Assembly: GCF_000981785.2 (NCBI RefSeq)
Contig: NZ_CP011304.1
Coordinates: 3,060,001 to 3,092,000 of the forward strand
Direction: 5' to 3'
Length of the DNA stretch: 32,000 nt
From: Microcystis aeruginosa NIES-2549
Lineage (GTDB): Bacteria > Cyanobacteriota > Cyanobacteriia > Cyanobacteriales > Microcystaceae
Shown: positions 3,936-31,300 of the stretch, in pieces
Layout of the letters: each line of letters opens with the position of its first letter
How positions within the stretch are numbered: position 1 is the stretch's first letter
Notes under the pieces: generated by a model
Seen by the model: the letters and a program-made list of their open reading frames with translations, nothing else
Databases searched by the model: none
Told to the model about the DNA's origin: nothing
Made by a program: the position numbers and the translations under genes

Positions 3936-5228
3936 ATGCTCATCGGATTTAGTGTCGGCAATTATCGCTCTTTTAAAGATGTAGTAACTCTCAGTATGGT
4001 AGCTGCAGAGGATGCCTGTAGTAATGATGAGCTTGATAAAAATAATGTTTTTAAGGTTAATCAACAATTTAGTTTACTGAAAAGTGCCGCTATTTATGGA
4101 GCAAATGCCAGTGGTAAGAGTAATTTAATTCTGGCATTCAATTTTATGCGACGGTTTGTCATGAATTCTGCAAAATTACAAATCACTGACAAAATAGATG
4201 TGGAACCCTTTAGATTAAATACCGAAACTGTTGATAAACCATCCTTTTTTGAAATAGTTTTTCAGCTAAAAAATAAAACTTATAGATATGGATTTGAAGT
4301 AACTCAAAAGCGAGTAGTTTCCGAATGGTTATTTTGTACGCCCAGAAGTCGTGAAACTAAAATTTTTAATCGGCAAGACGATAAAATAGAATATAGCAAA
4401 AATATTGAACAAGGTAATATACTAAGAGGATTGACCAAAAAAAATACTCTGTTTTTATCACTAGCGGCTCAATTTAATAATTCTCTAGCGGTGGAAATTG
4501 TCTCTTGGTTTAGTCACTTAGGTGTTGTGTCTGGGTTAGATGTGGAATTATTAAAAGCGATTACGCTTGAGCATCTTTCTAATAGACAAGATTTGATTGA
4601 TGATGTGATTAAGTTAATTAAAAAATTAGATTTAAGTATTGACAATCTCAACCTAGAAATAGAAAGCAGAAAAATTTCCTTAGACAGTCTCCCGCAAGAT
4701 TTACCGGATGTTGTCAGAAATATCATCAGTCACTCTAGCGGTGAAATAAAGTCCGCTACCATAAAAACCTATCATCCAAAGTATGACTCAACAGGTAAAA
4801 TGATTGAGTTAGAAATTTTTGATATGGACAATCATGAATCTGATGGAACTAAAAAGATTTTGGCTCTGTCAGCACCGATTTTAGACACTTTGCAAAGAGG
4901 GGAAGTTTTAGTAATTGATGAATTGGATGCCAGACTTCATCCTTTAATGACTAGAAGTATAATCGAATTATTTAATTCTCAGAAAACTAATCCCAAAAAT
5001 GCTCAACTTATTTTTACTACTCACGATATTAATTTACTTAGTCATAAATTTTTAAGGAGGGATCAAATTTGGTTTACCGAAAAAAATCATCAAGGAGCAA
5101 CAGATTTATATTCTTTGGTGGAATTTGCTGATATTAATAATAATAATACCTTTGAAAAAGATTATATTCAAGGTCGTTATGGAGCAATACCTTTTATTGG
5201 TGATTTAAGTACAATTATTGGTAATTAG
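3936..5228 (+). CDS. ABC/SMC-like AAA ATPase (AAA_15/AAA_21 type), AbiLi/RloA-like
   Basis: 430 aa. Motifs: Walker A GANASGKSN, Walker B VLVIDELDARLHP, then IFTTHD, and C-terminal YIQGRYGAIPFIG. The gene is AT-rich relative to its neighbours by eye. Confidence 0.85.
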   Translation: MLIGFSVGNYRSFKDVVTLSMVAAEDACSNDELDKNNVFKVNQQFSLLKSAAIYGANASGKSNLILAFNFMRRFVMNSAKLQITDKIDVEPFRLNTETVDKPSFFEIVFQLKNKTYRYGFEVTQKRVVSEWLFCTPRSRETKIFNRQDDKIEYSKNIEQGNILRGLTKKNTLFLSLAAQFNNSLAVEIVSWFSHLGVVSGLDVELLKAITLEHLSNRQDLIDDVIKLIKKLDLSIDNLNLEIESRKISLDSLPQDLPDVVRNIISHSSGEIKSATIKTYHPKYDSTGKMIELEIFDMDNHESDGTKKILALSAPILDTLQRGEVLVIDELDARLHPLMTRSIIELFNSQKTNPKNAQLIFTTHDINLLSHKFLRRDQIWFTEKNHQGATDLYSLVEFADINNNNTFEKDYIQGRYGAIPFIGDLSTIIGN

Positions 5229-5229
5229 T

Positions 5230-5874
5230 ATGAGTAACAATAGGAATACTTCTGATTATTTGCGTCGCCAAACTAAGACTAGAGAAACAAGAAAAAGATT
5301 TTTAATTATTTGCGAGGGAGAAAAAACTGAAGTTAACTATTTTAAGGCTTTTACTGTTCCTAAGAAAATTGAAGTTAGGGTGAAAGGTGAAGGTAAAAAT
5401 AGCTTGAGTTTAGTAGAAAAAGCTATTAAGATGATAGATAATCTAAAAAAAGATGACTCATTTGATCAAATCTGGTGCGTTTTTGATAAAGATAACTGTT
5501 CTAAAGAGCAATTTAATCAAGCAGAAGGACTGGCTAAAGAACAAAATATCAAGATTGCCTATTCTAATGAAGCTTTTGAAATTTGGTTTATTTTACACTT
5601 TCAATATCTGGATATTGCCACATCCCGAAGTGAATACCCAAAAATTTTAAATACCCAGATGAAAAAGTGTAAATTATTAAACGAAAAAGAACAATATGCA
5701 AAAAATCGAGAGGATATGTACGAAAAATTAAAGCCATACCAGACAACAGCAATCACTAATGCAGCAAAACTTATTCAAGATAGAGATGAAGCAAAAAAAC
5801 ATCCTTTTGATGCCAATCCCTCAACCACAGTGCAGGAATTAGTGCAAGAACTTAACATCAATAGTCGTCCTTAA
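5230..5874 (+). CDS. RloB-like (Toprim-type) protein, AbiLii-like partner of the upstream ATPase
   Basis: Motifs FLIICEGEKTEVNYF, IWCVFDKD and AYSNEAFEIWFILHF. I prefer ATG 5230, one nt after the upstream TAG. The track start at 5218 is a TTG that overlaps the upstream gene. Confidence 0.85.
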   Translation: MSNNRNTSDYLRRQTKTRETRKRFLIICEGEKTEVNYFKAFTVPKKIEVRVKGEGKNSLSLVEKAIKMIDNLKKDDSFDQIWCVFDKDNCSKEQFNQAEGLAKEQNIKIAYSNEAFEIWFILHFQYLDIATSRSEYPKILNTQMKKCKLLNEKEQYAKNREDMYEKLKPYQTTAITNAAKLIQDRDEAKKHPFDANPSTTVQELVQELNINSRP

Positions 5875-8057: not shown

Positions 8058-8947
8058 TTAAATCCCTGTTGCGATAAATGCCGTCCAATAATAGGGATTG
8101 GCAAAGGGATAGGGTTGACGTTTAACCGCAGCTTCTAATAAGTCTTGGAATTTTCTTCTATCCCGTTTACTCTCAAAGACTCGATCGAGTAATTGTTGGA
8201 ATTTTTGACTATCTTTAATTCTGGCTAATTTTTTACTATTCAATGTTCTTAACCATGTTTGTGTATTATTTAAAACAATGGCAATACTCCCTTGATCTTG
8301 GATAGAAATCCGTTTAAGATCGTGATAAAATTTAGTCATAAATAACGTATTTGTTAGGGGATATACTGTCCAAAGGGTACTAACTACACTAGAACTTCCT
8401 GCAAATAGAAAACCACTGGGTAACCCCACATATTCATCACTAATACTATCAGCTTTACTTTCGATTATACCACTTTCACAAGCAGAAAAAGTAACTAAGC
8501 GGCATTCTCTTAAGTCAAATTTTTCAAATACTTCTGCTAGGGTTAGGTTAGCTAATTCTCCTAAGTTACCGTCTGGATCTGCTAACATTAATGCGGAGTC
8601 TCTAGGGGATTTACTATCAAATTTTCCATGACAGGAAAAATGAATACAATGGGATGCTTGTAATTCTTGACGACGGTTTTCTAGGGTTTGTTCTGATGCT
8701 TCTAATTCCCCAATAATAATAGTTTTTTCAGTAGCAAATACTTGACTAATTCTCTCGATTTTTAGATTTGCACCTAAGAGAGGTTTTAGGTCTTTTCTGG
8801 TGGGGTTTTTAATGGCAAAAAGACGAGTAAAGTTTTCTCGCTGTGATAATTTTACCAGTTTTAAAAGTTGGCAACTGGGAACGTATCCTACACCATTAGA
8901 AAAGCGTTGATAGAGAAATTGTCCATTGTTTAGGGGTAAACAATGAA
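8058..8947 (-). pseudogene. C-terminal fragment of a CHAT-domain (caspase-like) protein, cut at its 5-prime side by the ISL3 element
   Basis: The frame is open from 8058 up to the IS boundary, whereas the track shows it only from Met at 8588. It translates to LHCLPLNNGQF...GYVPSCQLL...ASHCIHFSCHGKF...RLVTFSACESG...GLPSGFLFAGSSSVVSTLW. The His (HFSCHG) and Cys (SACESG) dyad motifs are both present. There is no start codon or N-terminal region. Confidence 0.8.
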
Positions 8948-10364
8948 GGCTCTTCCGAACTTGTCATGTAAAATTAAAAAAAAACAGACAATTATTGCTG
9001 ACCAATAAAACAATAATTTATCTTTAAAAGCTGACTATGCTTGCAATACAGCAATTTATTGTTTAAAATATAGACAGCCAAGACCAGCAATTTTAGACAC
9101 AAGCTATACTTATGCCATCAAATCCACAATTAAAGTTAATGACCGAGCTACTTCACCTAGAAGGAGTTGTCGTTACCAATTATCAAATTATTACCGATAT
9201 AGGAATTGTTTTACATTTAGAAAATATGTCAAGAGAAAGCCAGTGCATTCATTGTGGAAGTAAAACGGAAAAAGTTCATCAAAACAATGAATTAACAATC
9301 CGAGATTTACCCTTTGGAGAACAGGCATTATATCTGAGAATCAATCGTCGTCAGATGAGATGCGAGAAATGTGGGAAAAAATTCACAGAAGAACTAAATT
9401 ATTTGCCGAAGAAAAGAACCTACACAGACAGATTTAGAAAAAAAATAGTGGCCGAAGTCCTGAATAGTGATCTCAAAAATACGGCAGAAAGAAATGGAGT
9501 AAGCGAACAAGAAATAGAGACGATGCTCAAAGACTTAGGAGAAGAGTTAATAACCGCAAAACCTCAAGGGCTAAAAAAACTAGGAATAGATGAAATAGCC
9601 ATGATAAAGGGAAAAGGAAATTACTATGCTGTGTTAGTAAATATAGACACAGGAAAAATTATAGGCTTAGGGGAAAAAAGAACAGAAGAAGCATTAACAG
9701 AATATCTGAAACACTGGGGAGAAGAGGTTTTGAGCCAAATAGAGGAAGTAAGTATAGACCTGTGGATAGGGTATAAAAATGTGGCAGAAAAACTAATGTC
9801 TCAAGCTCAAATAGTAGGGGATAGATTCCATGTAATGAAACAAGTAAATAACGAGCTAGATGAAGCAAGAAAGGAGGTAAAAAGAGAGGCAGCTAAGATA
9901 AAAAACAAGAAAAATAAAGAAAATATCTTAGCAGGAATAGCCAAGAGCAAATATGCCTTATTAAAGAATGAAGGAGACTTAGTAGAGAAAGAAAGGAAAA
10001 AATTGGAAGAAATATATAAAGTGTCTCCAAAACTTGGGGAAATGCACAAATTAAAAGAGGAATTTAGAGAAGTATTTGAGAAAAATACGGAGGGGAATGA
10101 GGGATTATTTGCCTTGAGTGATTGGCTCAAAAAGGCGATGGCTTACTTTCCTAAAAGCTGCCAGACAATTCGGCGGTGGATTGACGAAATAACTGCCTAT
10201 TTTGATAACCGAACAACCCAGGGAACAGTTGAAGGAATTAATAATAAACTGAAGGTGATTAAAAGGAGAGGCTATGGATTTAGAAACTTTAAAAACTTTA
10301 GTCTTAGATGTTTATTAAATTGGCATTTTGCTAGTTGATTTTACATGGTAAGTTCGGAAGAACC
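8948..10364 (+). mobile_element. ISL3-family insertion sequence, apparently intact (1417 bp)
   Basis: The terminal inverted repeats are GGCTCTTCCGAACTTGTCATGTAAAAT (8948-8974) and the reverse complement of 10338-10364, GGTTCTTCCGAACTTACCATGTAAAAT. They enclose one transposase ORF. The 8-bp flanks differ (acaatgaa vs ggatttct), so there is no target duplication. Confidence 0.85.
9112..10338 (+). CDS. ISL3 family transposase
   Basis: 408 aa. The N-terminal zinc-finger region is CIHCGS...CEKCGKKF. The body (DEIAMIKG..YYAVLVN, DRFHVMKQVN, ..EGINNKLKVIKRRGYGFRNF) is typical of ISL3 DDE transposases. Confidence 0.9.
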   Translation: MPSNPQLKLMTELLHLEGVVVTNYQIITDIGIVLHLENMSRESQCIHCGSKTEKVHQNNELTIRDLPFGEQALYLRINRRQMRCEKCGKKFTEELNYLPKKRTYTDRFRKKIVAEVLNSDLKNTAERNGVSEQEIETMLKDLGEELITAKPQGLKKLGIDEIAMIKGKGNYYAVLVNIDTGKIIGLGEKRTEEALTEYLKHWGEEVLSQIEEVSIDLWIGYKNVAEKLMSQAQIVGDRFHVMKQVNNELDEARKEVKREAAKIKNKKNKENILAGIAKSKYALLKNEGDLVEKERKKLEEIYKVSPKLGEMHKLKEEFREVFEKNTEGNEGLFALSDWLKKAMAYFPKSCQTIRRWIDEITAYFDNRTTQGTVEGINNKLKVIKRRGYGFRNFKNFSLRCLLNWHFAS

Positions 10365-10963
10365 GGATTTCTTGACTGGGCAAATAAGTCAAATATGTCT
10401 GCCTCACAATCTCCGATTGTTACTACTTGAATTTCTTCGGGTATTTGTTGTTGTGTTTCTGACAAAGAATCTAACCATCTTTGACTTTCTTTTTCTTGAG
10501 TTTCTCTTTTTTTTCTTTGCTTGGCAATCCCTAAATTCTTTTCTTCTCTTGCCCAGACATATTGATTAATCAGTCCTAAAGGTACTCCTTGCGCTGAGAC
10601 TCCTAATGTGGTATGAACTTTGAGACCAAAGGATGTTTTACAATCTAGATAACCCATTCCTTTTTTGGCTTTTTGCGTCGTAAAGTCTAAACTTGTTGTG
10701 TCTTGCACTGCCAAAACTATTGGATGTTCTTTGATTCTTTCTACTGTACTTTTAGCTTGGGCGGCAATTATATCTGAGGGGTGAAAATAGGGGGAATTCC
10801 AAAAGTCGTAGGTGGCACTGGCGGCGGCTAGATTTCCCGAAGCTTGTGGCACACTTGTACTAGGTTGGCTGGCCAAGTTTTCTACGATACTGATTAACCT
10901 TTTCTTTCTTCTGGTGTCCCCTAGGTCTGCATACTGTAATTCTTGGGCTGCCCATTTCTCCAT
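10365..10963 (-). pseudogene. N-terminal ~200 aa of an IS4-family (Tn5-like) transposase, truncated by the ISL3 insertion
   Basis: MEKWAAQELQYADLGDTRRKKRL...ATYDFWNSP...VLAVQDTTSLDF...IGDCEADIFDLFAQ then runs into the ISL3 inverted repeat at 10364/10365. The C-terminal catalytic half is absent. The outer end of this IS remnant lies somewhere in 10964-11075 and is not defined. Confidence 0.8.
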
Positions 10964-11075
10964 TTTTTTGCTTACCTCCACCTTAATTCCTTCTTTCAAA
11001 ACTATACCTATCAATCGTTTCCCCTTTTTTTAAGTTTCTTCTCTTTTTGTTAAGAAAGATCCGACTAATGGATAG

Positions 11076-18054: not shown

Positions 18055-19023
18055 CTAAGCATCTAAAGCATTTAACAAATTAGTTAAATCCTCCCCTGTC
18101 GAAAAATCTAATAAAGCTTCCCCCACTCGTTCCAGATCATCAATATTCAAGGTCATAATCCGACTCTCTAGAGTCACATCAATAGCTCCTAACTTACGTT
18201 TAATCAGACGAATAATTAGATTTCTTTCTCTTGCTAAACCCTGTTCTAAACCCTGTTCCAAACCCTGTTCTAAACCCTGTTCTAAACCCTGTTCTAAACC
18301 GCGGCGCATCCAACTGGTGGTAATCTGCATAACTCCCTCCTGTTCGGGTTGAATAAATGTGCTAATCTCCTGTTGAAATTCTATCTCCTCGGACGAGTTG
18401 AGATTGAGATAGGTATCGACAAAGCCTGAAATCAATTGCATTCTAGCCGCATCTAATCTTAATGTTACCAATAATCTTAGACATTGTGCCTTAACTTTTG
18501 CTCTATCCCGAGGGGCAATTTTCATCTTGGCCATCAAAGCGGCGGCGACGGGATTAGCTTGATTGAGAAAATCCCGCCAATGCAAGCGATTTAACTGGAC
18601 AACTTGATAGTTAAATTCTAACACTTTTAAGTCAGGAAAATCAATTTTGTATTGACGAATTGCTTCTTTTTGTGGACGCTCATAGGAAAATATGACAATC
18701 GGATAAACTGGTAAGGCAAATTTTTGATGCAGACGAGCGAAATAAGTAAACATTCGCCGATTAAATTCTGGTTGAGAGCTAGACTGTGCTTCTAGATGAA
18801 TTAAGAAAAATGATGATTGTCCTCGAAATTGAACTTGGGCGACTAAATCACTTTCATACTTTTCTCCTTCCGTGACATCGGTAAAGACTTCTTTGTCTAA
18901 AAATGTGATCTGATTAGGCTCTAAATAATTAATAACCGCGGGGAAAAACAACTGAATAAATTCAACAAAAAAAGTCGAAATTAATTCCTTAAATAAACGA
19001 TCATGGTCAATAACATTATTCAT
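18055..19023 (-). CDS. Rpn-family recombination-promoting nuclease / putative transposase (PD-(D/E)XK) with a DUF4351-like C-terminus
   Basis: 322 aa. The sequence DRLFKELISTFFVEFIQLFFP...ESDLVAQVQFRG...FLIHLEAQS is typical of the cyanobacterial Rpn/YhgA-like family. It contains a (GLEQ)5 repeat. Confidence 0.8.
   Translation of the reverse strand: MNNVIDHDRLFKELISTFFVEFIQLFFPAVINYLEPNQITFLDKEVFTDVTEGEKYESDLVAQVQFRGQSSFFLIHLEAQSSSQPEFNRRMFTYFARLHQKFALPVYPIVIFSYERPQKEAIRQYKIDFPDLKVLEFNYQVVQLNRLHWRDFLNQANPVAAALMAKMKIAPRDRAKVKAQCLRLLVTLRLDAARMQLISGFVDTYLNLNSSEEIEFQQEISTFIQPEQEGVMQITTSWMRRGLEQGLEQGLEQGLEQGLEQGLARERNLIIRLIKRKLGAIDVTLESRIMTLNIDDLERVGEALLDFSTGEDLTNLLNALDA
18235..18300. repeat. 12-bp tandem repeat TAAACCCTGTTC x5.5 inside the Rpn gene (encodes GLEQ x5)
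   Basis: Read directly. One unit has C in place of the first T. Confidence 0.95.
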
Positions 19024-26151: not shown

Positions 26152-27510
26152 CTATTTTTTGATCGCCAAACTATCGAGATAAGCTTGGGGATTGGCAGGA
26201 TCAAAAGTTTTGCCATCAAAGAATTTTTCGACACCCCTGGAGGTACTGGTGGGAATATCAGCTGCGGGAACCCCTAACTCTGTAGCTGCCGCTTTCCAAA
26301 GATCCTCGCGGTTAACTTTGTCGATTAAGGCTGAGGCAGTGGTTAAAGTTTCTTTCGGCAAGAAACCCCAACGAACACTTTCGGTTAAAAACCAGAGATC
26401 ATGACTCTTGTAGGGATAGGAAACGCTACCGGCGGGATCTTTCCAGTAGAAAACCCCTTTATTTTTGTCGGTGATTTCCGGTTTACCGTCACCCATTTTC
26501 TGCATTCCTTTGAGGGGACTGGCGATAATTTCTTCTTTGAGGTTGAAATAAGCCGGTTTAGCGAGAATTGCCGCCGCTTCTGCCCGATTTGCCTCTTGAT
26601 CGAGCCATTGCTGCGCTTCCATAATTCCTTTTAATAAGGCCTTGGTGGCTTTCGGGTTTTTATCCACCCAATCGGCGCGGATAGCGAGGTATTCTTCCGG
26701 GTGATAGGGCCAGATTTCTGCGGTTAAAGCTGACATAAAACCGATCTGATCGGCCACAATTCGCGCCGGCCAAGGATCACCGGTACTAAACGCATCCATG
26801 GTTCCCGTTTTCATGTTGGCCACGGTTTGGGCTGCGGGTACGGCAATTAGATTAATATCCGTATCGGGGTTAATACCACCGGCGGCTAACCAGTAACGAA
26901 TCCAGAAGTCTTGGTTAGCTTTCGGGAAAGTATAGGCAGCTTTGAAGGGAGTTCCCGTCGTTTTCATGCTGAGGATGTAATCTTTGGCGGGTTTCAGGTC
27001 TAAACCGATATTTTTGCCCTCGTGTTTAGATGCGATCGCGATTGCGTTACCCTGGGTGTTTAACTGCGCTAACACATACATGGGGACTTTAACGTTATTT
27101 TTGGTGATTAGTCCCTCAGAAATTAGGTAAGGCATGGGCATTTGCCACTGTCCTCCGTCAATTCCGCCCGCATCTGCCCCAATTTCGACGTTATCTCTAG
27201 CAGATCCCCAGTTTGCTTGTTTGGAGACTTCCACATCGGCCATCCCGTATTTAGCAAAAAAGCCTTTTTCCTTGGCAATAATTAAGGGTGCGGCCTCAAC
27301 GATAGGAATATAACCTAATTTAATTTTGGTGGTTTCGGGGGCCTCTCCGGGGGCCACCGCTACGGGAGAAGCAACCGGGGCAGCGGGCGCGGTGGTGGTG
27401 GTTCCACCCGTAGTGTCGGGGGGATTACCCAAACAACCTTTGAGGACAACAGCCCCTGCCGCTGAAACTGCCGCCGTGGTTAAAAATTTCCGTCTCGAAA
27501 AATTTGACAT
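26152..27510 (-). CDS. nrtA: Nitrate/nitrite-binding lipoprotein NrtA
   Basis: 452 aa. It has a Tat-like signal plus lipobox ([22 protein letters not shown]), then a Pro/Thr/Ala linker. [22 protein letters not shown] and [12 protein letters not shown] are typical of NrtA. Confidence 0.95.
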
Positions 27511-27773
27511 AGAATCTCCTACCTGCTGCTAAAGCAAATATGTGTGCTGAATTATGGGTAAAGGAATCCCTCGCTAAACTTTCCTTCTAGCCCGTGCTAT
27601 AGAAATTTAGCTATGGAATATCGAGTCTCGATTGAACTTACTAGATAAGTCTAGCGGAATTTGGAAAAAATAATTAATCCGATCGAGAATTTTATTTACA
27701 AAAATTTAATTCGATTGATAAGAATTAATTAAGTAGGGTCTGCTGAAAAAGTTTTTCGTGGGGGCAGGGTGTG

Positions 27774-28097
27774 GGCTTCGGACGTTTAATCTTCCAATAC
27801 GCTTCTTTCAACAACAGCCGCTCTCTGCACTTCTTCTTAGGTGCTTGGCCGGTAATCGGTATCTGGTTTACCGCGATGGGTGTTAGCACCATGGCGTTTA
27901 ACCTCAACGGTTTCAACTTCAACCAGTCGATTCTCGATTCTCAAGGTCGTGTAATCGGTACTTGGGCCGATGTGCTGAACCGCGCTGGTATCGGTATGGA
28001 AGTAATGCACGAGCGCAACGCTCACAACTTCCCCTTAGACTTGGCTAGTGGCGAACAAGCTCCCGTAGCTCTGATTGCTCCCGCTATCAATGGTTAA
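27774..28097 (+). pseudogene. psbA: 5-prime-truncated psbA (photosystem II D1) fragment, last ~107 codons
   Basis: It translates to [51 protein letters not shown]...[33 protein letters not shown] stop. Upstream in frame there is a stop at 27744 and no D1 similarity. About 250 N-terminal codons are absent. Confidence 0.9.
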
Positions 28098-28116
28098 TTC
28101 CTAGTCTGAACGAAAA

Positions 28117-28143
28117 GGCACTCCTGCGAGGGGGTGCTTTTTT
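28117..28143 (+). terminator. Rho-independent terminator following the psbA fragment
   Basis: GGCACTCC tgcga GGGGGTGC followed by TTTTTT. Confidence 0.7.
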
Positions 28144-28161
28144 GTTGTTAGAATTATGATA

Positions 28162-28278
28162 TATAGCGTTTCCTAAGCTAGTGAGGTACACATATTTTTC
28201 TTCCCTTTTGACTTTTGCCTCTTGCCTTTTGCCTAAAAACCATAACTTTTGTACCTCAGCAGACTGAAAAACGCTATA
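28162..28278. mobile_element. MITE-like 117-bp element bounded by inverted repeats
   Basis: The left end is TATAGCGTTT..GTGAGGTACA. The right end is TGTACCTCAG..AAACGCTATA. The outer 10 nt are perfectly complementary, and TA dinucleotides are possible on both flanks (28162-63 and 28277-78). The interior carries TTTTGCC-type short repeats. Confidence 0.5.
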
Positions 28279-28304
28279 GCTCAATGTTAAATGGAGTTAA
28301 TCTT

Positions 28305-28535
28305 ATGATATCCCCTCAAATTATTGAACTGGAACAAAAGTTACGAGACTGTTCTCTTGAAGATAAAAAATGGTTATTGGAGCAGTTACATCAACAATTA
28401 GGATTGAATAATCAAAAAACAACTAAACAACGATTAATGGATAGTTGGAATGAAGCTTATAGTGATGGATTGGACGAATCAGAAACTTTGATGTTAGAGG
28501 GAATACGCCATCATCAACGCCAATTATCTGAGTAA
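28305..28535 (+). CDS. Putative antitoxin partner of the MazF/PemK toxin
   Basis: 76-aa ORF from ATG 28305, with ggag 8 nt upstream. Its stop is 2 nt before the toxin ATG. I recognise no antitoxin family. The track ORF starts earlier, inside the inverted-repeat element. Confidence 0.6.
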   Translation: MISPQIIELEQKLRDCSLEDKKWLLEQLHQQLGLNNQKTTKQRLMDSWNEAYSDGLDESETLMLEGIRHHQRQLSE

Positions 28536-28537
28536 AT

Positions 28538-28894
28538 ATGACGATTTTCCAAGGTGATATTTATTGGATTGATTTAGGAGAACCACAAGGTTCTGAACCT
28601 GCTTATCTTCGTCCTTGTGTTGTGGTGCAAAATGATGCTCTGAATCAGTCACAAATTGGGACGGTTATTGTGTGTCCATTAACAACCAATTTGAGACGAG
28701 CAAAAGCTATTGGTAATGTTTTATTGAATGAGGGTGAAGGGAATTTACCTGAATCCAGTGTTGTTAATGTTTCACAGGTTTTCACGGTTGATAAACGTCT
28801 TTTAACGGAGTCTATCGGAAGACTTTCTCAGGAAAAAATCAAATTAATTATTCAGGGAATTAAGTTGGTTATTGAACCTCAAGAACTCGAATAA
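28538..28894 (+). CDS. Type II toxin, PemK/MazF family endoribonuclease
   Basis: 118 aa. GDIYWIDLGEPQGSEPAYLRPCVVVQND and VIVCPLTTN are hallmark MazF/PemK motifs. Confidence 0.9.
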   Translation: MTIFQGDIYWIDLGEPQGSEPAYLRPCVVVQNDALNQSQIGTVIVCPLTTNLRRAKAIGNVLLNEGEGNLPESSVVNVSQVFTVDKRLLTESIGRLSQEKIKLIIQGIKLVIEPQELE

Positions 28895-28929
28895 TAGGGG
28901 GTTATAAAAGGATTTAAAGAATCCATTTA

Positions 28930-28995
28930 CCCTTAGACTTAGCTAGTGGCGAACAAGCTCCCGTGGCTCTGATTGCTCCCGCTATCAATGGTTAA
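28930..28995 (+). repeat. Second copy of the last 66 bp of psbA (codons for [21 protein letters not shown] plus stop)
   Basis: 64/66 identical to 28032-28097, with mismatches g/a and a/g, in the same orientation, 898 bp downstream. Confidence 0.92.
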
Positions 28996-29017
28996 GTTCT
29001 AATCAAATAATTACGAC

Positions 29018-29059
29018 AAAAAAGGTCGGGGTGATCTAATGTTCGCCCCGACCTTTTTT
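29018..29059. terminator. Bidirectional rho-independent terminator
   Basis: AAAAAAGGTCGGGG (loop) CCCCGACCTTTTTT. It lies between the second psbA-end copy (+) and the stop of the minus-strand gene at 29079. Confidence 0.8.
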
Positions 29060-29078: not shown

Positions 29079-29894
29079 TCACCTGACCAATAACCACTTC
29101 TCGCTCCAAGCACCGTTGACATTGAAGCCACTGCCCGTAGGGGTGAAAGTAAGAGAACCGTAGTCGAAGTTATTGCAGATGGTTCCGAAAATAGTGGCAT
29201 GGACTCGCTCAGGTGGACAGATATCTGCGGCCCCGTAGCCGTTCTTTCCGCGAGTCCCCAGGTGGGAATAGGTGTTGCCATCCCAATCCCCGTTACCGAA
29301 CCAGGTTGTGTTGGCTGGACCTTCTTTCAGCATACAGCGCAGACCTTTGCCTCTGCGCCCACCTGTCAAATCAGTTACCTGATATTGATTGAAATGGCTA
29401 CCGCAGGTTTTGGGACGGGGTAGGGGGTTGTAGTTAACGGAGGAAGCCAAACGCCACTCCTCATTCCAGGCACCAGTCACCCGAATCACTCCTGGTCTGA
29501 CCGTTCGGATCTCGAGATTACCCGGATAGTTGAAGTTAGCATCCTCCCCGTTACCGTGAATGTCGGACGCGAACCCGACCAACATTCTGCCTCGGTCAAT
29601 CGCCTGTCCCAGATGGCGGTAGGTAGCCCCTTCCCAGGTTCCTTCCCCGTACCAGGACAGACGGGGAATGCTTGAGCCTTGCTGTCCTTTACTGAATTTG
29701 ACACAACGAATCCCAGTTCCCCGTCGGTTATCTAGCGAACGAACTATATATGTTTCTAAGTGGGGACCACAATTGAAGCGAGTAGCAGTGGTCAGACGGA
29801 TCGGCTCTATTTGAATTTGAGCGAGGCTGGGCAAAGTTGCCACCAACAGGGCTATACCGCCTAATACCATAGTCTTGACAGAACGTAGATTCAT
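29079..29894 (-). CDS. Secreted hypothetical protein built from two homologous ~110-aa repeats
   Basis: A signal peptide (MNLRSVKTMVLGGIALLVATLPSLAQ) is followed by two repeats. They share CG.H...Y.V..L...RRG.G.RC, W.G.G.W.G.TY.HLG and the ending ..GAW.E.W.L. The gene is GC-richer than its surroundings: 36 of 70 nt were G/C in a hand-counted sample. Confidence 0.75.
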   Translation of the reverse strand: MNLRSVKTMVLGGIALLVATLPSLAQIQIEPIRLTTATRFNCGPHLETYIVRSLDNRRGTGIRCVKFSKGQQGSSIPRLSWYGEGTWEGATYRHLGQAIDRGRMLVGFASDIHGNGEDANFNYPGNLEIRTVRPGVIRVTGAWNEEWRLASSVNYNPLPRPKTCGSHFNQYQVTDLTGGRRGKGLRCMLKEGPANTTWFGNGDWDGNTYSHLGTRGKNGYGAADICPPERVHATIFGTICNNFDYGSLTFTPTGSGFNVNGAWSEKWLLVR

Positions 29895-30903: not shown

Positions 30904-31197
30904 CTAACTCAAACAAGGTAGAATGAAAAGCTGAATATCATTATCAAGTGCAATCCTCAACTCCCGTTGGATGTATCCCTGTTTATTAGCCGATTTTGCT
31001 GACAGACAGGCGAGAAAAATCTGACTGGCTTTAATCGCTTTCGGAATTTCATCTCGCCAAATTTGACCCGGAATCAGCTCTTTTTTATCCAACCAAGGTT
31101 TATATCCCACTTGCTTAAGGCGGTTATACAGTGCCAAAACTGGTGGTTTATCCTCATTGGCATGGGCCAAGAAAATTTGAATCTTTGACTTCTTCAC
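30904..31197 (-). CDS. TIR-domain protein (short, possibly truncated by an amber codon)
   Basis: 97 aa. The motifs IFLAHANEDK, YKPWLDKKELIPGQIWRDEI.KAI and FLACLS..S....GYIQRELRIAL are typical of bacterial TIR domains. The frame stays open for 45 more codons beyond the TAG at 30904-30906. Confidence 0.8.
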   Translation of the reverse strand: MKKSKIQIFLAHANEDKPPVLALYNRLKQVGYKPWLDKKELIPGQIWRDEIPKAIKASQIFLACLSAKSANKQGYIQRELRIALDNDIQLFILPCLS

Positions 31198-31300
31198 TTT
31201 GGTTTTTACCAGTGTAGCCGCTACTGATTTACTAGGTAACTTAGGAGATTCTGGGGGTTAGAGGTTGGGGGAGTTTCCCTTGTCACCGACTGCAAATGCT

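Follow-up and report, generated by a model that had tools for sequence, protein, structure and literature searches.

The window analysed here, a stretch of 32 000 bp from Microcystis aeruginosa NIES-2549 (contig NZ_CP011304.1, positions 3,060,001 to 3,092,000 of the forward strand), contains a 5′-truncated copy of the photosynthesis gene psbA, followed by a toxin-antitoxin (TA) cassette of the MazEF type and by a second, much shorter copy of the psbA 3′ end. This TA cassette between two psbA tails was compared with other loci and contigs (L-numbers) carrying relatives of the psbA tail, of mazF or of the neighbouring genes, among which L001 (CP012375.1, a 4.29-Mb chromosome) and L003 (BJCK01000073) were 98–99% identical to the window across the whole region. 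For a census of psbA ends, metagenome contigs were scanned with the exact pattern of the tail start, which gave 82 loci (L073–L154), and the downstream contexts were compared by alignment of 80 flanks.

The psbA fragment, its repeated tail and the enclosed cassette

Blastn with a full-length Microcystis psbA (1083 nt) from a metagenome contig as the reference placed psbA nt 762–1083 at window positions 27776–28097 on the plus strand with 95% nucleotide identity, i.e. the last 322 nt of the gene and D1 residues 255–360, and a second block, nt 1015–1083, at 28927–28995. In the NCBIfam psbA profile TIGR01151 just positions 255–360 of 360 were matched, with 215.7 bits against a cut-off of 596. The sequence is a gene fragment, as had been claimed for it in the original prediction of a headless psbA, and is short of the ca. 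360 residues, the five transmembrane helices and the family score of a full-length D1. The open reading frame (ORF) annotated on the fragment (27771–28097, plus strand) starts with GTG and encodes 108 amino acids with a Pfam Photo_RC match, and the best 120 matches listed in a protein homology search with it were partial D1 sequences only. The missing 5′ part of the gene, for which a search had been proposed, is not in the window, where chance matches of 12–22 nt alone were obtained.

The last 66 nt of psbA including the stop codon are present at 28032–28097 (tail 1, the left copy of the repeat) and again at 28930–28995 (tail 2), both on the plus strand and, as first reported, 898 bp apart in the same orientation with 64 of the 66 positions identical. 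The direct repeat as a whole comprises 28029–28106 and 28927–29004 (78 nt, 92% identity), with no psbA sequence before 28927 in the second copy. A 23-mer from the tail occurred exactly twice in the window, when none was expected from 100 shuffles. Bracketed by the tails are a psbA-type terminator, a 113-bp MITE (miniature inverted-repeat transposable element) and an intact mazE-like/MazF pair.

Terminator 1 (~28109–28146, plus strand) folds strongly, with a hairpin of −23.9 kcal/mol (z −4.5), and terminator 2 (~29018–29059), which follows tail 2, is a different one. Since its hairpin folds on both strands (−30.5 and −25.8 kcal/mol), terminator 2 is bidirectional and common to a convergent gene encoding 271 amino acids, in agreement with what had been claimed for both terminators. 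As to which of them follows an intact psbA, terminator 1 was found after 14 of the 15 intact Microcystis psbA copies in the census and terminator 2 after the remaining one, in L113; terminator 1 is thus the usual psbA terminator, and terminator 2 is native to one paralogue, here called the term2 paralogue. Headless psbA copies are followed by terminator 2 in L066 and L012. Terminator 2 shows a hairpin-flip polymorphism, its loop and inner stem having opposite orientations in different strains (GGGGTGATCTAATGTTCGCCCC at window 29027–29050 versus GGGGCGAACATTAGCTCACCCC at L066:7665–7690 and in L002).

The cassette itself consists of an antitoxin-like ORF of 76 amino acids (28305–28535, plus strand), which ends 2 nt before the ATG of mazF (28538–28894, plus strand), a toxin gene of the MazF/PemK family encoding 118 amino acids. 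The PemK/MazF toxin domain is complete (PF02452 PemK_toxin, 3.7e-28, profile positions 2–108 of 109), and the coupled antitoxin/MazF pair was thereby recovered as described. The NCBIfam MazF equivalog scores were far below cut-off, for which reason the window MazF is a distant member of the family. The 76-amino-acid protein had no match in Pfam, NCBIfam or PADLOC. Across alleles the antitoxin-like ORF was always paired with mazF, the pair was kept in four diverged alleles, and the identical MazF protein is encoded in several M. aeruginosa assemblies (30 index blocks, 23 contigs read). The complete toxin domain and the small coupled upstream ORF are as in MazEF/PemIK type II systems, from which the window pair differs by an upstream protein without a match to a known antitoxin family. 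Judged from sequence, the predicted MazEF-type TA pair alone is probably the functional element of the locus. The 3′ flank of mazF (28895–28929, plus strand) contains a weak hairpin (GGATT-TAAAG-AATCC, −5.1 kcal/mol) and ends at the joint to psbA nt 1015. Decayed modules were also encountered: in L118 (reverse strand, 194–635) mazE nt 186 is fused to mazF nt 102, and in L082 mazF is without its first 141 nt and the tail is deleted.

The inverted-repeat element between terminator 1 and the antitoxin gene, originally given as 117 bp, is real, but its size is 113 bp (28164–28276) plus a duplicated TA (28162–63 and 28277–78), with terminal inverted repeats TAGCGTTT/AAACGCTA. It is a MITE, being short and non-coding, with terminal inverted repeats, a target duplication, several copies and insertion polymorphism. 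Further copies at L003:380–497 and L089:2780–2896 give three insertion sites in all, and the site of the former is empty in the window at ~19030. The MITE is polymorphic between near-identical strains; at the psbA site it is missing from most strains, i.e. from L003, L004, L008, L010, L011, L102 and many metagenome contigs, and it is unrelated to the repeat. Subtraction of 115 bp from the tail spacing of 898 bp gives 783 bp, and the MITE-less loci L090, L102, L114 and L140 have spacings of 782–784 bp. The element inserted in a sub-lineage, independently of the tail and cassette event and probably later. By length, the one property compared, it is shorter than the MaeMITEa–h families of 176–429 bp listed for strain NIES-843 (PMC2779907).

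Variation of the psbA fragments was judged against 35 full or probably full psbA copies covering reference nt 762–1083. The window fragment has eight differences from the nearest full copy, its protein differs at one residue, and just one of its variants was absent from all 35 copies, which together with the 95% nucleotide identity establishes that the fragment derives from the organism's own psbA family. At the other loci each fragment had 0–2 private variants, with the exception of L012 (nine), and the changes were nearly all synonymous. According to PMC6053082, gene conversion leads to a concerted evolution of cyanobacterial psbA paralogues, the synteny of which is lost in Chroococcales. 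An intact fragment ORF with synonymous differences fits continual gene conversion, and selection on the fragment is not required.

That the headless ORF is maintained because it is used, be it to make a small C-terminal D1-like protein beginning at the GTG at 27771 or to produce an RNA acting on psbA or nrtA expression, seems very unlikely. It is true that the reading frame is intact, that its differences from functional copies are nearly all synonymous, and that headless psbA with the nt-762 breakpoint is kept in at least five strains, but gene conversion explains the synonymous-only pattern, and the variants are common to functional alleles. Fragments elsewhere are cut at other points and show decay, with an in-frame stop in L005 (L005:1745–1810) and a Gly-to-Arg change in L066. 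Moreover, the region upstream of the ORF revealed no promoter-like site, and the fragment is without four of the five D1 transmembrane helices.

In total, eight 5′ breakpoints were found among the loci (psbA nt 762, 817, 858, 895, 947, 977, 989 and 1007), and the upstream sequence is unrelated between these classes, by which one mobile element behind all headless psbA copies was ruled out. The left side of the truncation joint in the window is formed by a short dispersed intergenic motif (27734–27775, plus strand), which consists of TAGGGTCTGCTGAAAAAGTTTTT and a G-rich heptamer-like sequence and abuts the breakpoint. A 93% copy of the motif is located at L001:18444–18486 (motif region 18420–18486), where it is followed by (GGTGTGG)n, and a partial copy at L072:151–179 (region 151–200) is followed by CAGGAG-type repeats. 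P0120, a partial D1 from a metagenome-assembled genome of Microcystis flos-aquae, has an internal 19-residue deletion (FGR|AWPVIG), the ends of which fall near the breakpoints nt 762 (window) and nt ~817 (L012); it could be an assembly artefact or mark a recombination-prone stretch.

Filled and empty alleles

Filled alleles with the order tail 1, terminator 1, mazEF, tail 2 and terminator 2 were present in the window, L001–L003, L090 and L102. An empty allele was found in L066, from the strain that also yielded L004, with the same nrtA flank, the same breakpoint at nt 762 and the 108-codon ORF, where just one tail stands directly before terminator 2 and the 271-amino-acid gene; the window aligns with it in a left part up to 28100 and a right part from 28927. 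In L113 an intact 360-codon psbA is directly followed by terminator 2, and at the same locus L090 and L102 have an intact 360-codon psbA continuing with tail 1, terminator 1, mazEF, tail 2 and terminator 2, by which the question whether such cassettes lie downstream of psbA elsewhere was answered in the affirmative. A third pair is formed by L099, in which psbA and its tail are followed by terminator 1 and the genes for DUF433/DUF5615, and L005, in which mazEF and a tail stand before the same terminator and genes. The members of each pair (L066 versus the window and L003, L113 versus L102, L099 versus L005) differ exactly by one repeat unit and the intervening DNA. The module of terminator 1, mazEF and tail is a presence/absence polymorphism with its ends inside the psbA tail, and the window contains a direct-repeat-flanked segment under homologous deletion and duplication.

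The module occurs with both intact and truncated psbA, and the 5′ truncation is therefore an event separate from cassette gain or loss. The original prediction had the 5′ part lost later than the cassette was acquired; the intact and filled alleles L090 and L102 bear out that the truncation is distinct, and 'later' is only probable, the order not being provable when truncated alleles are both filled and empty.

Traces of exchange between the repeats were found in the tails themselves. The single tail of L066 combines the 5′ alleles of tail 1 of L003 with the 3′ allele of tail 2, a chimera of the pattern expected from exchange between the repeats. Tail 1 of the window has four differences from tail 1 of the 99%-identical L003, three of which now equal tail 2 of the window, and tail 2 of L102 is identical to a normal psbA allele. 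The tail haplotypes are mosaics made up of alleles that functional psbA copies also have. Either unequal tail-to-tail exchange or the integration of an excised circle accounts for the difference between L005 and L099. Exchange within a headless fragment was seen in L012 and L083, which carry one and the same headless psbA and agree in its upstream joint. In L012 (10905–11200, minus strand) it begins at nt ~817 after leuC and is directly followed by terminator 2 and a gene of the 271-amino-acid type, whereas in L083 terminator 1 and a different flank follow; as the two share the upstream joint and differ downstream, an exchange inside the fragment has swapped the downstream chromosome context.

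On this comparative evidence, the two tails serve as ordinary substrates of homologous recombination, by which the 783-bp module is looped out or in, or duplicated by unequal exchange, giving rise to its presence/absence polymorphism in the population, with gene conversion taking place between the tails and from functional psbA copies into them. Of the earlier claim that the cassette was captured or moved by recombination between psbA ends, it is this part that stood, presence or absence being governed by the tails in L066 and L113 against the filled alleles and in L005 against L099. The founding event is a matter of reconstruction, as treated below.

Recombination at psbA 3′ ends and the origin of the repeat

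About 25 tail-only copies start at psbA nt 1015, and each of them is preceded by the same mazF 3′ flank (…GGATTTAAAGAATCCATTT), from which a single origin of the mazF::psbA-nt-1015 joint follows. Behind the mazF-linked tail most loci have terminator 2, L005 has terminator 1 and L140 another sequence. The mazF gene was also found with three tail-free right flanks (the L004, L088/L085 and L120/L080/L119 types), and none of the other TA cassettes behind psbA has its own tail. The idea that psbA tails act as portable handles for TA cargo was accordingly not upheld, as there is one joint of one origin. The recurrent handle is instead the psbA 3′ end together with terminator 1, to the left of the cassettes. 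The block common to psbA paralogues (window 28098–28154) ends with …GCTTTTTTGTTGTTAGAAT (TTAGAAT), and at least 12 downstream contexts diverge at the same base. Its last bases, TGTTAGAAT (28146–28154, plus strand), resemble an extended −10 promoter element and may have a promoter role.

Approximately half of the contexts behind the block start with TA-like genes, i.e. four diverged alleles of the window mazEF, DUF433/DUF5615 in two contexts, YafQ/RelE-like pairs in two contexts, one of these with a Uma2 nuclease, a second PemK pair, and XisI. As background, TA genes make up at most ~2.5% of the ORFs in the richest genomes, a group to which Microcystis belongs (PMC3141249). That many TA cassettes begin at a single base after the psbA terminator is the most interesting lead of the analysis. 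The base of divergence is also where the DUF433/DUF5615 cassette (L148, L099, L005, L082) begins on its left, and on the right this cassette is attached to mazE nt 54 by one illegitimate joint; in L099 and L005, mazF nt 80 is joined to psbA nt 895. In L135, a cargo of 3.9 kb (Uma2, a YafQ-like pair and three other genes) lies behind psbA and terminator 1, and on its right side there is a second psbA fragment (nt 858–1083) with terminator 1. The recurring pattern is one in which the left side is anchored by psbA homology and the right side is joined illegitimately, often within the 3′ part of the recipient's psbA.

The locus was probably formed as a layered recombination scar at one psbA paralogue, the native 3′ end of which is the tail with terminator 2, convergent with a variable gene. 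In the first step, a segment consisting of a psbA 3′ end, terminator 1, the mazE-like gene and mazF, from behind another psbA copy, would have entered the term2 paralogue. Homology in psbA would have been the left anchor and the right end illegitimate, the mazF stop and 34 nt being joined to psbA nt 1015, so that the last 69 nt of the recipient and terminator 2 stayed behind the cargo and the direct repeat was created. The recombination between the tails described above would then have set in. In a separate event, presumably of later date, psbA nt 1–761 were removed and nt 762 fused to the dispersed repeat upstream of nrtA, and the MITE insertion is a further layer. The psbA piece may be regarded as a pseudogene kept from decay by gene conversion, and tail 2 as filler in the 3′ untranslated region before terminator 2.

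The geometry of the first step is that of homology-facilitated illegitimate recombination, a process of naturally transformable bacteria with a one-sided homologous anchor and an illegitimate joint, reportedly treated by de Vries and Wackernagel in 2002 and in related work. The locus resembles it in having homology on one side and a near-homology-free joint close to the anchor, and repeated use of the anchor gives varied cargo with the same left border. It differs in being anchored by the 3′ end of a photosynthesis gene with several copies, in having its joint inside the anchor gene, which gives a direct repeat allowing reversible loss, and in that the process is deduced from structures.

The same structure is given by deletion in a tandem array, psbA with terminator 1, mazEF, a possible spacer and psbA with terminator 2, when a single illegitimate deletion runs from 34 nt past mazF to nt 1015 and the later steps are those set out for the layered scar; we consider this origin rather unlikely, although the two are inseparable at this locus. 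Direct tandem psbA copies are found ~8 kb apart on L117 and L092, and three psbA copies on one 44-kb contig (L076, L102, L123). The two mazF-psbA joints (one at nt 1015, the other connecting mazF nt 80 with nt 895) are easily derived from a long downstream psbA, and in L004 a relic of the psbA interior, likewise oriented, lies downstream of mazF. However, mazEF was followed by a complete psbA in no sampled locus, the empty alleles L113, L066 and L012 must all be derived ones, and the left breakpoint 'ccatt' is common to the tail type and the relic of L004, which would not be expected from two independent deletions.

Several points weigh against a layered scar started by capture. Its original event is reconstructed, with the tandem deletion as an equivalent route; whether each polymorphism is an insertion or a deletion cannot be read from sequence; and the tail-pattern scan finds 3′ psbA fragments only, by which the abundance of 3′ fragments is biased and no claim of a 3′ bias is possible. 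Furthermore, the putative donor-type locus L004 ends uncleanly, with a decayed psbA relic not explained by the model. Behind the same mazEF allele (99.7% identical) in L004 (1098–1150), L007 and L009 come 'ccatt', then AACATAAAAAAAGCGTACAGC, the psbA relic (reference nt ~748–776) and a rare GNAT gene. The relic of L004 overlaps the truncation point of the window (nt 762) by 15 nt, which may be a coincidence or a trace of reciprocal rearrangement. The GNAT acetyltransferase gene forms one 3-member cluster, and the donor locus is not traceable through it.

A site-specific, non-autonomous cassette of an integron- or island-like kind, with the tail as the attachment site and a recombinase elsewhere, has in its favour that direct repeats of a gene 3′ end around cargo with restoration of the gene are a classic island signature, that TA cargo is as in superintegron cassettes, and that many cassettes begin at one precise point after terminator 1. 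Nevertheless, it is scarcely credible here. The window ORFs of at least 100 amino acids and the genes called within ±10 kb in L001 included neither a tyrosine nor a serine recombinase gene, there is one shared joint, so that a single cassette bears the tail, downstream psbA fragments start at nt 1015, 895 and 858, and the exchange points implied by the tail mosaics are scattered over the repeat. Searches of viral contigs turned up no tail pattern and no MazF relative, which leaves a phage route unsupported as well. With no integrase in the genes surveyed, variable exchange points and a tail on the mazEF module only, the locus is not a site-specific element. An integron-like reading of GTTAAGT, located where tail 2 meets terminator 2, was likewise rejected, as chance alone would give such a fit to the loose core GTTRRRY roughly once in every kb, the border of tail 1 misfits and no integrase is among the genes surveyed.

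Islands at the 3′ ends of tRNA, tmRNA or protein genes (attL/attR) are alike in that a duplicated gene end brackets the cargo, and in that psbA stays complete in L090 and L102 with the incoming DNA supplying the new 3′ end. The psbA locus differs by the lack of an integrase in the genes surveyed, a cargo of 0.8 kb, a repeat of 92–97% identity, variable exchange points, and an incoming 3′ end that is simply from another paralogue. Orphan toxin/immunity cassettes behind rhs and cdiA retain short homology to the main gene. They are similar in the use of short pieces of a conserved gene as homologous handles for small toxin-immunity modules, but there a new toxic tip is fused to the main gene, whereas in the present case there is no effect on the psbA protein, the cargo being a type II TA operon in its own right.

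It is also conceivable, if improbable, that the psbA 3′ end, terminator 1 and TGTTAGAAT form a recombinase-independent docking platform for small defence and TA cassettes, integron-like in effect but operating through general recombination, with the window mazEF as one product. If so, five near-identical, homogenised psbA ends per genome would offer a portable anchor to incoming or resident cassettes, and expression would be provided by the extended −10-like motif or by read-through from the very strong light-driven psbA promoter. Should TA cassettes prove to be enriched behind psbA terminators, turnover of defence genes would be linked to a photosynthetic gene family, and a simple system testable by polymerase chain reaction would be at hand for recombination rates in bloom populations.

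Genomic setting of the locus

The locus is a scar of homologous and illegitimate recombination at a multicopy gene and not a new kind of mobile element. It provides a population-level case of a conserved multicopy housekeeping gene giving the homology that moves, duplicates and deletes small modules without a dedicated mobility enzyme, in a setting among the most plastic bacterial genomes known. It also accounts for partial psbA genes in Microcystis annotations and for assembly breaks at psbA, and calls for caution with intact-looking pseudogene ORFs that have synonymous differences only, as these may reflect gene conversion and not selection.

In PMC2779907, the Microcystis genome is described as highly plastic, and strain NIES-843 as having five psbA copies and a C-terminal partial copy; C-terminal partial psbA in Microcystis is by that account already known. 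The window shares with those reports a C-terminal partial psbA and homogenisation by gene conversion (PMC2779907, PMC6053082), whereas the psbA-related passages of the two papers describe no repeated tail, TA cargo or presence/absence polymorphism. A literature search returned partial psbA in NIES-843 only, and no description of psbA-tail repeats or psbA-linked TA cassettes.

On the left of the fragment, nrtA (26152–27510, minus strand; Pfam NMT1_2, 1.8e-95), encoding the substrate-binding protein of a nitrate ABC transporter, is the first gene of the divergent nrtABCD operon, and the loss of the psbA 5′ part is situated next to its upstream region as had been stated. On the right, the convergent gene for 271 amino acids (29079–29894, minus strand) has no assigned function and relatives mostly in Nostocales; a genome-collection scan with its protein returned two Microcystis loci only, L012 among them. 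The slot between terminator 2 and a conserved ABM-domain gene is variable (L102, L113, L005, L140), being occupied by the 271-amino-acid gene, a 187-amino-acid gene or an Exo_endo_phos gene.

The nearest mobility gene is that of a YhgA-like transposase (Transposase_31/DUF4351; 18055–19023), 8.7 kb upstream of the psbA fragment. At a distance of ~17 kb there are an ISL3 transposase gene (9112–10338) and, beside it, an IS4-like transposase fragment (10331–11014). The neighbourhood is rich in mobile and defence remnants. An AAA_21 (AbiEii-like ATPase) and RloB gene pair at 3936–5874, directly after chlL-DUF5331-chlN, is likely an inserted defence pair. In addition, a CHAT-domain fragment was identified at 8058–8588, and a short TIR-domain ORF next to the ABM gene at ~30905–31198 (minus strand; from the gene table of L001).

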